Assembly (NCBI GenBank): GCA_026025075.1
Contig: JAPEUI010000014.1
Location: forward strand, 1-64,000
From: Vezdaea acicularis
Taxonomy: Eukaryota
DNA length: 64,000 bases
Reading direction: 5' to 3'
Under the pieces are notes generated by a model, which was given only the letters and a program-made list of their open reading frames with translations, ran no database searches and was not told the origin of the DNA. Below are positions 40,440 through 49,030 of this stretch, in pieces. How positions within the stretch are numbered: the first letter of the stretch is position 1; every line of letters begins with the position of its first letter. The position numbers and the translations under genes are program-made.

Positions 40440-41260
40440 TCAGAATAGTTTGTGTTTAGCATCTCGCACTACCCATTGCAGCCCTTCGTTGAGGTTACTC
40501 CCAGTCAGAGCGCTGCATTGTATAATAGTCCAGTTGTGAGTCCGGATCGCATCAAGCTGGAGGCCCTATATCCAAGATGAGTTAGGCTGTCCCGGAAATC
40601 ACCCAAGCGAAACTCACCACTCGGATCTCATCCTCCTCCATGCACCCTGCGATATCTGTCTTGTTCGCAAAAATGAGCAGACTAGCTCCCATCAATCTCT
40701 AATTGATAGAGCAACTTAATCAGTGAGGCTGTTATCAGTGATAGCGCTCTTACTCACTTCTTCGAGAAGAAGTCCAGCGAGCTCCTCTCTACAATCATCG
40801 ATCCTCAACCGATCAGTAGCGTCCACTACCCAGATCAATGCGTCTGTCTTCTCAAAGTAATTTTTCCAGTACGAGCGTAAAGTTTTCTGGCCACCGACAT
40901 CCCCTATTCCCAGGGAGTCAGTCCAGACGAAGACTTTTAGAATTATTAGAAGGCCTTGCATATGTTCAATTTGTACCTACTAGGATCAGTAAAGTGCTAG
41001 ACCGGCCGATTTGGCTAACCCAAAAAGGGGTGTGCTCACCCATCAAAATCTATCGTCTTGATGATGAATCCCAAAGTAGGGCTGACGGTATTGATATCCT
41101 CATTCATAACTCTCTTGACTATTGTTGTTTTGCCCGCATTGTCTAAGCCACTGCAATATCATGGTCAGCTAGCCCTCATTACCGCATCTTCCAGTACGCA
41201 CAGCATCAGGATTCGCATCTCCTTATCTTTCATCCGCGCCTTGCGTAGGATTGAAAGCAT
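40440..41260 (-). CDS. ARL2: ADP-ribosylation factor-like GTPase ARL2/CIN4
   Basis: [50 protein letters not shown] and ANKTD motifs. Five introns. Confidence 0.95.
40904..40959 (-). other. GC-AG intron in ARL2
   Basis: AAC ATA T|GCAAGG...CTGAC...TAG|GG GAT GTC GGT restores the conserved NIWDVGGQ. Confidence 0.85.
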
Positions 41261-41743: not shown

Positions 41744-43010
41744 CTATGCTCGAAGCTTGGGCTCGCCCACTAGAACAGTCTCGACGCCCTTGTCACCACG
41801 AACGTCTTCTTCGCTTGAAGCGTCGGACGTGAGATCCGTACCTTCGCTCTTAGGAGACAAGAAAGGCCAATGGCCTTTCTGCTCGAAATACCTCATTGAG
41901 AGGAACATTATGATGGTAACGAGCCAGTACACGTTGTACGAAATGACCGAGCCATAGGTTGCTGAATTGGTCCAGCCAAAGAGCGAGTTGAAAACACCCC
42001 AGCCACCTCCACCTCCAAGATTAGGGCTGCAACACTGGAGAATCATCAGTGATGCCCAACGACATTTCAAGCGTAGAGGATACCCACGTTGACGTGCCAC
42101 ACGCTTCGCGTAATGTCATAAGAACCTGGGCCGTCACCAGTCTCACTGGCATCACCTCCAATTTCCTTATTCCACTTGTTCGTCTCGAAAAAGCCAACAG
42201 CCTTCGAGAAAAGGCCGGCTGCTACAAGATAAAGGAAGCACGTCGAGATGATTAAGAAGGTCTGAATGGACGCGAATCTTGATCCTCTGAAGGAGACTGT
42301 CAGCTCAATCCTCTCCCGAGAAGGAATTGACCATCATCAACTTACTTATATATGAACCACCCGATCAGAGACCCGGCAAGAATGCCTGTCAAGACGGGGA
42401 TTGGGAACGCCGAGGCTTGCTGGCCAACACCGACACCGCCAATGAATACAACAGCCTCGAGGCCTTCTCGTAAGACGGTAACGAATGGCAAGATAAACAT
42501 GGCGTATTTCTCGCCAAAACGCTTGAACCGGCCCCTGGCGCTCCCCTTGAGGCTGTCTTTGGCTTCGAGTGCTATCGCGAGTTTCACCCGCCATTTGTCC
42601 TGCAGCTTGGATACTCGCAATAACGCAGCGCCCATCAGACTGATGATGATGGTCGCGATGAGGCCAAACACACCCTCCCAGACATACTCAGTATTGGACC
42701 ATGCACTACTCCTGGAGAGACCGTAGAAGGCCCCGATCATTCCTGCGCCAACGCATACGCATATCACTAACCCCAATATGGTTCCAAACCAGACTTGTTT
42801 TCGCAGCTTCTTATAGACTAATGGATCTCGCTCAGGGCCCAAAGTCTGCTTCAAGAATGCGAGGAGCACCGAGACAATGATGCTAGTCTCGAGCGTCTCT
42901 CTGAAAACGATGAAGAAAACTGCAGGTTGTCAGATCAATCGCAAACAGGAAGCTTCAAGAGTTCGGGGAATCAGCTTAATAGTACCTGGCACGGCAAAAA
43001 CGGCCACCAT
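41744..43010 (-). CDS. FTR1: High-affinity iron permease
   Basis: Two RExxE motifs (RETLE, REGLE), multiple transmembrane segments and [16 protein letters not shown]. Three introns. Confidence 0.95.
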
Positions 43011-44788: not shown

Positions 44789-46916
44789 ATGCCGTTCGCA
44801 CTCTTGTATCAAATCGCTCTCATTTTCCTCCTTCGAGTGGCGTATGCTGCAACTGTCACTTACGACTTCAACGTTGGTTGGGTCAGCGCCAATCCTGATG
44901 GGGCTTTCGAACGTCCAGTAATGGGAGTTAATGGGAAATGGCCTATCCCTGAGATTAGAGCAAGCGTTGGAGATCAGCTAGTCATCAAAGTGCACAATAT
45001 GCTTGGAAACCAGAGCACTAGCATCCACTTCCATGGCCTTTATCAAAACGGTACGCCGGAAATGGACGGCGCAGTTGGAGTGACCCAATGTGCCATTGCC
45101 CCGGGATCATCGTTCACTTACAACCTTACGGTAATACAACGAATGCCCTCAAACTCATCCTCATTCAGTTGCTGACCGTTGGCTAGATAAATCAACCAGG
45201 AACTTACTGGTATCATTCCCATGTCCGCGGCCAGTATCCGGATGGCTTTCGAGGTCCACTAATTATTGACGATCCAAAATCGCCTTACAAAGGACAGTAT
45301 GAGGATGAGATCGTCCTAACTCTATCCGACTGGTATCACGAACAGATGCCAACCCTAATGTCTCAATTCCTCAATCGCAGAAACCCTACTGGGGCAGAGC
45401 CTGTCCCACAGGCAGCGTTGATGAATGACACACAAAATATAACTGTAGCTGTCCAACCAGGAAAGACCTATCTCTTCCGAGTTGTCAATATGGCTGCTTT
45501 CGCTGCTCAATATTTGTGGTTCGAAGGACATACGATGAGAGTCGTTGAGGTGGATGGGATCTATACAGACCCGGCAGAGGCGACGATGATCTACCTCACT
45601 GCTGCCCAGCGCTACAGTGTCCTCATCACGATGAAGAATGATACCGATGCCAATTTTGCCTTTGTCGGGAGCATGGATCAGGTAAGCTCTCTCTGCCCAC
45701 CCATTCAAGGGCCAACGCTTATGCGTCATGCAGGATTTGTTTGATAAGGTTCCAGAAACATTGAATCCAAACGTCACTGGATGGTTGACATATGACAATA
45801 CCAAACCTTTCCCAGAGGCATCGCTCCTCGATGATTTCGACGATGAATTTGATGATTTCTCTCTAGTGCCTCAAGATCAAATGCCTCTTCTTGACCAAGT
45901 TGACTACTCATTTAACCTTGATGTCAAAATGGATAACCTAGGGGATGGAGCAAATTAGTGAGGGATATCAGACCACCATGAATAGGAAGAGCGCTAACAG
46001 AAAGGGACAGTGCGTTTTTCAACGACATCACCTACGTTACGCCAAAAGTGCCAAGTCTCTATACTGTGCTGTCCACAGGCCTAAGCGCCACCAACTCGGA
46101 GATTTACGGAGTGAACACACACGCCTACGTTCTGAAGAAGGATGAGATCGTAGAAATCATCCTGAATAACAATGATCCTGGCAAGCACCCATTCCATCTG
46201 CATGGTCATGCATTTCAAGCAGTGGTAAGATCCGACGAAGAGGCTGGACTTTACAATGGAACTGGATCTGTTTCATTTCCTTCAGTACCGATGAGGAGGG
46301 ATACCTTCATGGTAAGGCCTAATGGGAACATGGTTCTGAGGTTCAGGGCCGATAATCCAGATAAGTAGCTCCTGCTATGTTAAAAATCTACGATACTGAC
46401 ATCTCCTACGCGTCTGGCTTTTTCACTGTCATATCGAATGGCATGTTATTTCAGGATTGACTGCTACTATGATCGAGGCACCGGATGTACTGCAACAAAC
46501 GCTTCAAATTCCACAAGATCATATGCAAGCCTGTAAGGATAGCAAAACACCAGCAGCTGGTAATGCAGCAGGAAACACCGTCGACTTCTTGAACCTAGAT
46601 GGCGCCAACGTCTCCGTGCCGCCACTTCCTCAGGGGTAAGTAAATCACTCAACCCTTTTCGTGGCAGCTTGCGACCGTGACCCAAATGCTCATAGCGCAT
46701 GTTAGATTCACGCCGCGGGGTGTTGTTGCTCTGGTGTTTAGCATTCTCAGTGCATTCCTTGGTCTTGCCGCAATTACCTGGTATGTCCTTTTAGCGTATG
46801 TGTCTCTTGCCAGTAATCCTTTTGCTGATTTCCGTTATAGGTATGGCATGGGGGACCTTGGTTCTGGGGAGCTTACAGCAGTTAGACGACGAATAGCAGA
46901 GGGGGGTATCAAGTGA
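44789..46916 (+). CDS. FET3: Multicopper ferroxidase
   Basis: Signal peptide and all four copper-binding motifs ([23 protein letters not shown]) plus a C-terminal transmembrane helix. Divergent from FTR1; six introns. Confidence 0.95.
46361..46409 (+). other. AT-AC intron (49 nt) in FET3
   Basis: GAT AAT CCA G|ATAAGT...TACTGAC ATCTCCTAC|GC GTC TGG CTT TTT CAC TGT CAT restores DNPGVWLFHCH. No GT-AG alternative retains this motif. Confidence 0.85.
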
Positions 46917-47722
46917 GGCGAAGACCATTCTCGAATGCAACTGTAGAACAAGGTGATGATGGTTGCATTTGATGAGACCATGAGCTCTTTTCCTGCTTTG
47001 TCTGCATCGTGCCCCAGATTAGATAGGTCATACAATCGTAGATTGACAGCATGAACCGTGCAGAAAAGATGTTGCGACCTGCGACAACGCCATGCAGTTC
47101 TTCACATAGCGACTTTCTTACTCCGATTCGTCCATCTCCCCCAAAATGTGGTGGAGGTGCATTCTGTATGCGCGGTAAATGCACGCGGGGTCTATCGATT
47201 GCTCCCGGGCCGTTCCAGCCACTGCTGTCCCGGCGTTTGGAAGGAGCACTAAGGCCGCGCAGGGCTGTTGTTGCGGGGGCCATCGCTGCACCTCTCAAAC
47301 CTTCGAGACGTCGAGTCCCATGCCTCGCGACCGTTTGACCCAAATGCTTTGACCCAAAAACATCGCTGCCGGGGCATGTCATCGCGCAGCGCATTGATCG
47401 ATTATCTGGGTCCCTGCATGCGTGCTACATGCCTTGCGGAAGAGCGGTGGCCTAAGTTACACGCGCTTTTGCGTGCCTTGCTCCATCTACTAAACGCAGC
47501 GCGCACGTAGACCTCATCAAAGCAAGGTTATTGAGGAACTGAGTTCTTCTCTTCGCCCCAAGCCTTGTTGATACTCATGCATTTTGCGCTATTTCTTGTC
47601 CCCGAAGTAGCTTATATATAACTATCATGTTCTCCGCATGTCAACCAGCACCTACTAAGCACGCCCACCAGAACGGCGCCCTCACCTCACTCTCTAGTCT
47701 CAAGACCAAATCAGCCTCTGCA

Positions 47723-49030
47723 ATGGCAGCAAACCCAGGTCATGCCTCCCTCAAACAGACCTACACTGAACGCGCCTCCCATCCAGACACCCACCCTTTG
47801 GTGTGCTACCTGCTACACCTGATCAGTATCAAGAAGAGCAACCTCGCACTGAGCGCAGATGTCACAACCTCCGCCGAGCTGCTCGCGGTGGCCGAGGAGA
47901 CCGGCGGCAGTATCTGTATTCTCAAGACACACGCGGACATCGTTACGGACTTTGGGGACCGCACGATTGCGCGGCTGCAGGAGATCGCGCGCAGAAAACG
48001 GTTTCTGATATTCGAGGATCGCAAGTTTGGCGATATTGGGAGTATGCATCCTCTCACACACCCACCCCCTTTCCTGCCTTTTTACTTCCCTCAATCTCTG
48101 CCAACCTTCCCCAGGAGAAGCTCTAGCTAACAGATGCACCCCTGTGTAGGTACGGTCCAAAAACAATATACATCTGGACCCCTCCGCATTGCAACATGGG
48201 CCAGTCTGACAAACTGCACGCTTTTTCCTGGCCCGTCCATCGTCTCTGCCCTATCCGCCGCCGCAACCAGCACCCTAACGGCACTGTCCACCTCCGTGAA
48301 AACCGACATCACAGCCTCTCCCCGCACAGAAACCCCCTCACCCACATCCAGCTCTCCGAGTCCCACCACCTCAACCTTCCCCGATCAAGCCACTACAAAA
48401 AGCGGGCGAGGCGAGAGCTTCAGCACCTATGACGCCGCCATCCGTGCAAATGGCTACACACGCAACCGCCTTAATAGCGCGCATTCCATCGAGACCACCA
48501 CGACAATCGAGACGTACTCCGAACCACTCGGCGGTCGCCGGCCCTCCCTCGCCCAGTCTCCCCCGTCTACTGCAGCGAACCTTGACGGGCCGTCCCCTGC
48601 AGACCAGCTAGCGGAGTTAGGCCGCGAGCCGCTGAGCCGTGGGCTGCTTCTTCTGGCCGAGATGAGCAGCGAGGGCAACTGGTGCACCGGCGCATACACA
48701 GACGCATGCGTGGAAGCCGCGCGCGAGCACCCCGAGTTCGTCATCGGCTTCATCGCACAGAGGTCCTTGAACGCCGAGGACGGCGATAATTTCCTCACCA
48801 TGACGCCTGGGGTGAGCTTGCCGCCTGCTGGAGCCGATCGGGGGGGACTCCGTGGGGATGGGCTCGGGCAGCAGTATAATTCTCCGCGGCGCGTGGTCGG
48901 CCAGCTGGGGAGCGATGTTATTATTGTGGGGCGTGGCATCTTGAATGCGGAAGATAGGGGGAGGGAGGCGGAGAGGTATCGGAGAGAAGGGTGGAGGGCT
49001 TATGAGGAACGCGTTCGTCGCACCGCCTAG
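47723..49030 (+). CDS. pyrG: Orotidine-5'-phosphate decarboxylase (long form with internal insertion); an in-frame upstream ATG at 47627 is also possible
   Basis: LKTHADI, active-site FEDRKFGDIG, RGLLLLAEMSS, MTPGV, GDGLGQQY and IIVGRGI motifs. Intron 48041-48149. Confidence 0.95.

Follow-up and report, generated by a model that had tools for sequence, protein, structure and literature searches.

Introns of the U2 type that begin with AT and end with AC (AT-AC II introns) are very rare: PMC1557818 counts 24 among about 610,000 introns in five species. The same text describes them in the vertebrate SCN4A and SCN5A genes, where AT...AC ends are combined with an otherwise U2-type donor and conserved among orthologues, and it mentions a hypothesis that xylanase genes of filamentous fungi contain them. 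It further reports that in yeast and human U2-type introns a change of the first base from G to A (G1A) can be rescued, less efficiently, by a change of the last base from G to C, and it cites suppressor mutants in which A pairs only with C and G only with G (PMC1557818). Here we describe an intron of this kind in a FET3-type multicopper ferroxidase gene of Vezdaea acicularis (leotiomyceta incertae sedis, order Vezdaeales). The window analyzed consists of 64,000 nucleotides (nt), positions 1 to 64,000 of contig JAPEUI010000014.1 (assembly GCA_026025075.1). From comparative sequence data, we consider it very probable that positions 46361-46409 are a genuine U2-dependent AT-AC II spliceosomal intron, old and widespread in the FET3 genes of leotiomyceta.

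The FET3 intron resembles the SCN4A and SCN5A introns in its ends, in its otherwise U2-type donor and in its conservation among orthologues. Unlike them, it is only 49 nt long, belongs to a fungus whose lineage reportedly has no minor spliceosome at all, and would presumably use the major one; its orthologue series, moreover, comprises GT-AG and AC-AC introns at the codon concerned, as well as loci with no intron there. Whereas the yeast and human suppressor mutants are laboratory products of reduced efficiency, the A...C form of FET3 is naturally fixed across many fungal classes. RNA sequencing (RNA-seq) of Fusarium graminearum (Pezizomycotina) yielded both AT-AC and AC-AC junctions, confirmed by Sanger sequencing, and the latter match two loci of our series (L004 and L074); that study offers no comparative analysis, unlike the FET3 orthologue series (PMC3577648). 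A likeness exists also with GC-AG introns, in which the deviant terminal base is offset by a stronger AAGT at +3 to +6 and by AG before the cut, according to PMC1557818 and PMC3577648. GC-AG introns, however, deviate at +2 only and retain AG at the 3' end, whereas the FET3 intron differs at both ends. U12-type AT-AC introns have the same terminal dinucleotides, but the FET3 intron carries neither ATATCC nor TCCTTRAY, and its host lineage is reported to be without the machinery. In general, U12-type introns combine a ATATCCTT-like donor with a TCCTTAAC-like branch site lying 10-15 nt upstream of the intron end. Full-text searches, in a collection without most subscription journals, brought up no report of AT-AC introns in FET3 or other multicopper-oxidase genes of fungi; the hits concerning lichens dealt with polyketide-synthase domain strings. 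The U2-type AT-AC class is itself known; what is added here is the depth of conservation, a clean covariation of the two ends, donor compensation and systematic mis-annotation.

The FET3 gene has seven exons, occupies 44789-46916 on the forward strand, and gives an open frame of 595 amino acids (aa) once 46361-46409 is taken out of the exon assembly. Exons 1 (44789-45130), 2 (45187-45681), 3 (45734-45957) and 4 (46011-46360) precede the intron in question, intron 4, and exons 5 (46410-46635), 6 (46706-46780) and 7 (46841-46916) follow it; the remaining five introns are all GT-AG, 52-70 nt long. Pfam searches with the exons identified Cu-oxidase_3, Cu-oxidase and Cu-oxidase_2, i.e., three cupredoxin domains, and the best match of the gene in PDB (using phmmer) was yeast Fet3p (1zpu_A). 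Searched separately, exons 4 and 5 matched Fet3p with E-values of 3.3e-41 and 6.4e-15, while the best laccase reached only 3.2e-09 and 3.1e-06, respectively. The motifs HPFHLHGH (in exon 4) and HCHIEWH (in exon 5, 46424-46444) align to Fet3p 1zpu_A; from knowledge of the family, we take them to be copper-ligand motifs. By sequence the gene classifies as a FET3-type multicopper ferroxidase, with ferroxidase activity as a prediction. Exon 6, downstream of intron 4, codes for a hydrophobic C-terminal stretch that is likely the membrane anchor, by analogy with other members of the Fet3 family.

Intron 4 (46361-46409, forward strand) is 49 nt long, has AT...AC ends, and interrupts a conserved Gly codon in phase 1. 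Exon 4 ends with RFRADNP and the first base of this codon (GAT AAT CCA G, the last G at 46360), and the GC at the start of exon 5 completes it: from 46410 onward the sequence reads GC GTC TGG CTT TTT CAC TGT CAT, coding for G-VWLFHCH. The 5' splice site, CAG|ATAAGT (46358-46366, with ATAAGT at 46361-46366), agrees with the U1-complementary consensus at 7 of 7 positions outside +1/+2. The branch A (46399) of a putative branch site of the CTRAC type, TACTGAC (46394-46400), precedes the 3' end by 10 nt; the 3' splice site is TAC (46407-46409), a YAC that is the counterpart of the usual YAG. If the intron is retained, the frame reads D-K-stop. Within 46361-46460, AG dinucleotides occur only at 46364, 46367 and 46453, none of them after the branch site inside the intron. 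A first-pass annotation, made from the letters of the window, had pointed out the ATAAGT start, the TACTGAC, the TAC end, the D-K-stop and the resumption at VWLFHCH, all of which read as it described; it had also claimed that no AG lies between branch site and HCH and that the next one falls at about 46454, in agreement with the AG at 46453.

The position of both cuts is fixed by the protein. In the phmmer alignment to 1zpu_A, exon 4 covers Fet3p residues 334-456 and exon 5 residues 458-528, leaving one residue between them; similarly, the Cu-oxidase_2 profile of Pfam is matched at positions 1-110 on exon 4 and 112-136 on exon 5. The single missing residue is accounted for by the Gly codon, G|GC, whose bases are divided between the two exons. 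If both cuts are moved one base up or down, the conserved Gly is altered, and thus only AT...AC ends yield the conserved protein. The predicted spliced junction would be CCAG|GCGTC, that is, CCAG joined to GCGTCTGG. Since retention ends the frame upstream of both the HCH copper ligands and the membrane anchor, splicing would be needed for a functional Fet3. Canonical splicing within the window was considered separately and rejected: there are 28 GT/GC...AG pairs that keep the frame open into exon 5, and all of them delete HCH (retained in 0/28).

We then turn to orthologous DNA at the same Gly codon. Metagenome contigs were scanned with an alignment of C-terminal fragments, which matched 573 stretches; 500 were confirmed as relatives, and the best 80 were kept. 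Among these 80 loci, 53 have no intron at the Gly codon, 16 have a GT...AG intron, and two have a GT donor on a contig that stops before the acceptor (L017 and L079). Seven loci carry ATAAGT...AC (L001, L003, L005, L039, L041, L076 and L077), and two carry ACAAGT...AC (L004 and L074). Mixed ends at this codon (G...C or A...G) were found in none of the 80. The A...C ends thus recur at the same codon in nine of 80 independent orthologous loci, which is more than expected by chance. The near-duplicate pairs L039/L041, L076/L077, L004/L074 and L062/L066 were taken into account in counting lineages, giving 7 A-type lineages (the window included) and 13 G-type lineages.

The ten A-type introns (the window and the nine other loci) have lengths of 49-86 nt, or 52-86 nt outside the window, and their internal sequences are unrelated. 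In all ten, a CTRAC or CTRAT motif lies 5-23 nt before the 3' end and is followed by no AG; the 3' end is CAC in seven and TAC in three. Beyond the junction, the frame of every A-type locus stays open over 70 aa or more; it starts with [VI]WLFHCH and contains HCH[IV][ED]WH. The two AC-AC loci (L004:1222-1620 and L074:1501-1900) are closely related; both read ACAAGT...CCCAC, with an otherwise perfect donor context and with HCH present. ACAAGT...AC is to AT-AC what GC-AG is to GT-AG, i.e., a T-to-C change at +2. As a separate observation, the approximately 40 codons around HCH are an intron hot-spot: in L019, L029, L032, L023, L025, L034, L046, L047, L069 and L037, which may be orthologues or paralogues, a GT-AG intron occupies not the Gly codon but another site, namely before DNP, following VW, within the Cys codon, or following HCH or IEW.

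The first and the last intron base therefore obey a strict pairing rule in FET3: with both ends seen, A goes with C in 9/9 loci and G with G in 16/16, and the corresponding figures in gene models (described below) are 17/17 and 4/4. The yeast work on suppressors of first- and last-base mutations is reportedly that of Parker and Siliciano (1993).

The donor context covaries with the ends. The motif CAG|nnAAGT is perfect at all 7 positions outside +1/+2 in 10/10 A-type loci, versus 0/16 GT-AG loci at the same site. Counted by lineage, it is perfect in 7/7 A-type versus 0/13 G-type (Fisher p<0.0001), and the Pro codon is CCA in 7/7 versus 5/13 (Fisher p=0.015), although both tests overstate significance because of near-duplicates and phylogenetic non-independence, a point that weighs against our interpretation. 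In the 48 intron-less loci counted, the Pro codon is CCA in 14, CCG in 11, CCT in 11 and CCC in 8, while 4 have Ala codons. Donor compensation in the A-type introns, of the sort seen in GC-AG introns, points to recognition by U1 and U6, and hence to the major spliceosome.

These observations bear on whether the intron could be of the U12 type, removed by the minor spliceosome, a possibility suggested by its AT-AC ends, the classic termini of minor introns. The donor, however, is ATAAGT and not ATATCC, in a context perfectly complementary to U1. Neither the U12 donor (ATATCC) nor the U12 branch motif (TCCTTRAY) was found in intron 4, and they were found in 0/10 of the A-type introns, which have instead CTRAC or CTRAT near the 3' end. 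In addition, U12 splicing has been reported as missing in Ascomycota and Pezizomycotina (PMC2846911), and PMC10639083 records an absence of minor introns from Ascomycota; according to these two sources, the group has neither minor small nuclear RNAs (snRNAs) nor minor introns. We therefore regard a U12-type intron as extremely unlikely. An Rfam scan, limited to the 64-kb window, gave 0 matches and is uninformative on snRNAs elsewhere in the genome. A bold possibility is that intron 4 is the relic of a U12-type AT-AC intron that turned U2-type when Dikarya lost the minor spliceosome.

A second line of evidence for the AT-AC II intron comes from deposited protein models. We classified 278 homologous models from three protein searches, including those with the Peltigera model P0008 and, in shorter-length mode, with P0101 as queries. 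At the site, 224 models are contiguous, 36 continue with "D.." after ADNP, 10 run into the intron with "G..", 7 lack the motif, and 1 is of another kind. The 36 D-type models comprise 26 with DK, 5 with DM, 2 with DE, and one each with DT, DN and DI. A D after ADNP implies G|A[T/C] at the donor. When D-type models return to frame, they have Arg before [VI]W in 17/17 cases, and Arg at the resumption (C|GN) implies that the last intron base is C; the G-type models that return have Gly before [VI]W in 4/4 cases, implying a last base G. Several of the 17 resuming D-type models are back in frame within as few as 4-10 residues, and these probably conceal an inner intron that was predicted; both edge residues stay informative despite the inner introns of some models.

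The same models reveal how the intron is mis-annotated. The deposited protein of the window gene (P0001, 472 aa, 100% identity) corresponds exactly to exons 1-4 plus the read-through residues "DK". Altogether, 36/278 models, the deposited one of the window gene included, are truncated, contain spurious inserts or omit the copper site, and surveys of iron uptake in lichen-forming and related fungi would wrongly call FET3 broken. We also observed deposited orthologue models without the HCH motif, namely P0003, P0004, P0053 (full-length) and P0032. Such models arise where a predictor read the intron in the wrong frame or where a canonical splice skipped the motif; those of normal length pass a length check, yet encode an oxidase without its type-1 copper site.

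The reliability of the sequence was assessed by comparing the window region 45900-46850 with DNA contigs of other sequencing runs (X2, X3, X5 and X6), of which X3 and X6 leave parts of the compared stretch without cover. X2 is identical to the window over 45900-46850, but it is a possible source of the window and may be the same data. X3, from a different sample of the same study, has a 280-nt contig that spans 46323-46602 with 0 differences. X5 is a relative, about 94% identical, with a 29,466-nt contig spanning 45900-46850 that shows 57 differences and no gaps; the differences listed inside intron 4 are only those at 46379, 46380 and 46393, and in the listed rows both ends and TACTGAC are unchanged. 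X6 has the same three intron differences as X5, and the same variants wherever it is covered. Thus, although the window derives from a metagenome assembly and X2 may repeat its data, a sequencing or assembly artefact affecting both intron ends is hardly credible: X3 comes from a different sample, X5 and X6 are collinear with the window and differ from it in the intron only internally among the listed differences, and the same ends appear in unrelated assemblies.

Comparison with X5 is also informative on selection. Synonymous codon changes number 13 in exon 4, 7 in exon 5 and 2 in exon 6, versus 2, 3 and 0 non-synonymous ones, respectively. The changes are mostly synonymous, indicating purifying selection on both sides of intron 4; the part of FET3 that would be lost without splicing of this intron thus appears, from these substitutions, to be under purifying selection. 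This bears on the idea of a decaying pseudogene, in which a canonical splice site was lost and Fet3 is no longer made. The deposited model, truncated at 472 aa, would fit such decay. However, the complementary end changes occur together here and in 9/80 loci with no half-changed intermediates, exons 5 and 6 are open and conserved, the frame stays open for at least 70 aa with HCH in every A-type locus, and an intact FTR1 partner adjoins the gene. We consider a pseudogene very improbable.

The comparison with other runs left two loose ends: at 46412 and 46344, X5 and X6 lead into further multicopper-oxidase genes, whose DNP-G-VW stretch is uninterrupted. They represent either a paralogue or another organism in the sample. 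An intron at DNP-G-VW is not universal in the oxidase family.

The closest approach to a transcript is a sequence that is probably transcript-like. P0101, from a run assembly, is an uninterrupted open reading frame (ORF) of 609 aa. From end to end it is collinear with P0159, a 634-aa genome model of Alectoria fallacina, except for a block of 30 residues present exactly at the junction in P0159; this extra block has D at its start and R at its end. Genomic A-type orthologues are broken into 2-5 tblastn pieces, usually in different frames, and since the ORF of P0101 is unbroken, it looks derived from complementary DNA. When all A-type rows were compared with all contiguous models, the best pairs over exon 4 had only 90-91% identity: P0101 with P0159 (90%) and with P0207. 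The comparison of P0101 and P0159 is thus suggestive rather than conclusive.

The A...C state is not private to Vezdaea acicularis. Species with the D signature belong to Vezdaeales, Thelocarpales, Trizodia, Candelariomycetes, Coniocybomycetes, Geoglossomycetes, Lichinomycetes, Sareomycetes, Xylobotryomycetes and Dothideomycetes, as well as to the genera Peltigera, Lasallia, Mycoblastus, Alectoria, Hypocenomyce, Pycnora, Ptychographa and Agyrium, which we take to be Lecanoromycetes. The best reading of this distribution is that the state was inherited and is widespread in the FET3 orthologues of leotiomyceta. Two trees were built: the first left out unnamed contiguous models, and the second left out all contiguous models (their state being unknown) and rows shorter than 80 aa. 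In the second, a weakly supported FastTree of 112 columns and 124 rows (44 A, 28 G and 52 without intron), the minimum number of changes between A and G is 4, and that between presence and absence of the intron is 16. In the first tree, A-type sequences prevail in the half to which the lichen-forming classes belong, and a G-type Teloschistales group is nested there. This Teloschistales-containing group (P0028, P0062, P0065, P0072, P0114 and P0121, with Caloplaca-like names), which shows G-type read-through at the same site among A-type lineages, is a candidate for a switch from A...C to G...G. The trees were rejected as a basis for the ancestral state, and kept for a rough picture and for the minimum count of switches. 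They provide evidence, to be distinguished from a dated reconstruction, that the A...C state is old and switches only seldom.

Whether the A...C ends also regulate the gene is a further question. Under this view, which would add to the interpretation as an AT-AC II intron, the ends were selected for slow or condition-sensitive splicing that tunes Fet3 to iron or copper. It is in line with the immediate stop that retention causes in Vezdaea acicularis, with the conservation of the A...C state over many lineages, and with the "less efficient" rescue by A...C compared to G...G (PMC1557818). Conservation is, however, equally explained by locked ends, if single reversions are deleterious. The perfect donor context (7/7) suggests that splicing was selected to be efficient and not weak; what retention leads to differs between species, as 17/36 read-through models resume in frame; and 53/80 loci have no intron while 16/80 have GT-AG. 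A regulated gate is in our view unlikely. Equally doubtful is its extension, that the A...C state goes back to the ancestor of leotiomyceta, hundreds of millions of years ago, and was kept as a rate-limiting, condition-sensitive gate rather than by mere locking of the ends.

The interpretation of the first-pass annotation consequently stands in part. Its naturally fixed AT-AC intron with U2-type signals is borne out (CAG|nnAAGT at 7/7 positions, CTRAC branch, no U12 motifs), and PMC2846911 and PMC10639083 agree with its statement that the host group lacks the minor spliceosome. It had argued that a change at two ends is not a sequencing error, as is now evident from the 0 differences in X3, from the X5 and X6 relatives and from the orthologous A...C loci, and it had correctly anticipated that gene predictors mis-model the intron, as P0001 illustrates. 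It had also raised the question of orthologues at the DNP-G-VW position, where A...C ends are indeed conserved (9/80 loci, with the D signature in 36/278 models). Its proposal of a splicing bottleneck, or of a switch responding to iron or copper, finds no support here: the donor is perfect, the retention outcome varies, and an A...C lock would explain the conservation at least as well.

Several points weigh against the AT-AC II interpretation, or limit it. Splicing at the junction CCAG|GCGTC is deduced from comparative sequence; no pair of a genomic locus and a spliced transcript from the same species was found between the A-type rows and the contiguous models. The absence of U12 splicing relies on the literature and on intron motifs. 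Both the loci and the models are best-hit samples that contain near-duplicates and are phylogenetically non-independent. The D and R signatures come from third-party gene models, some of which have predicted inner introns, and the D signature shows only G|A[T/C]. X3 shares its study with the probable source sample of the window, and 13 further differences, outside those listed in the comparison with other runs, probably but not provably lie beyond 46721, away from the X5 intron ends. The trees, finally, are weakly supported, based on 112-185 columns. What the sequences establish is the anatomy of the intron, the covariation of its ends, its conservation, and selection on the exons that follow; it is the junction in RNA and the machinery that we infer.

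Mechanistically, a U2-dependent AT-AC II intron could be processed as follows. U1, and later U6, would recognize the donor through its perfect CAG|nnAAGT context, offsetting the A at +1, and U2 would pair with TACTGAC, the putative branch site, whose A lies 10 nt upstream of the intron end. The second catalytic step would then use YAC, there being no AG beyond the branch site and the first base being A; the first and last intron bases would form their non-Watson-Crick partnership as A...C in place of G...G. The A...C state is probably held because reverting one end alone would impair splicing. FET3 constitutes a natural test of the first- and last-base pairing rule, with one codon in dozens of fungi showing only G...G or A...C. 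The A...C form always occurs with a perfected donor context, which makes this unusually clean comparative evidence from a lineage that has only the major spliceosome. The gene would also be a tractable system for measuring the efficiency with which A...C and AC...AC introns are processed by the major spliceosome in filamentous fungi, and for following transitions of lineages between A...C and G...G.

Next to FET3, an FTR1-family iron permease gene is located on the reverse strand (gene span 41744-42929), with an exon at 42342-42929 that matches PF03239 (E 2.4e-49). The two genes are divergent neighbours that share an upstream region of about 1.9 kb, and adjoining FET3 and FTR1 are the classic reductive iron-uptake pair. 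On the two outer sides of this pair, we found an ORF downstream of FET3 (47543-48130, forward strand) that matches orotidine 5'-phosphate decarboxylase (PF00215, E 4.9e-17), and an ORF beyond FTR1 (40716-40976, reverse strand) that matches Arf-family small GTPases (PF00025, E 8.8e-19).

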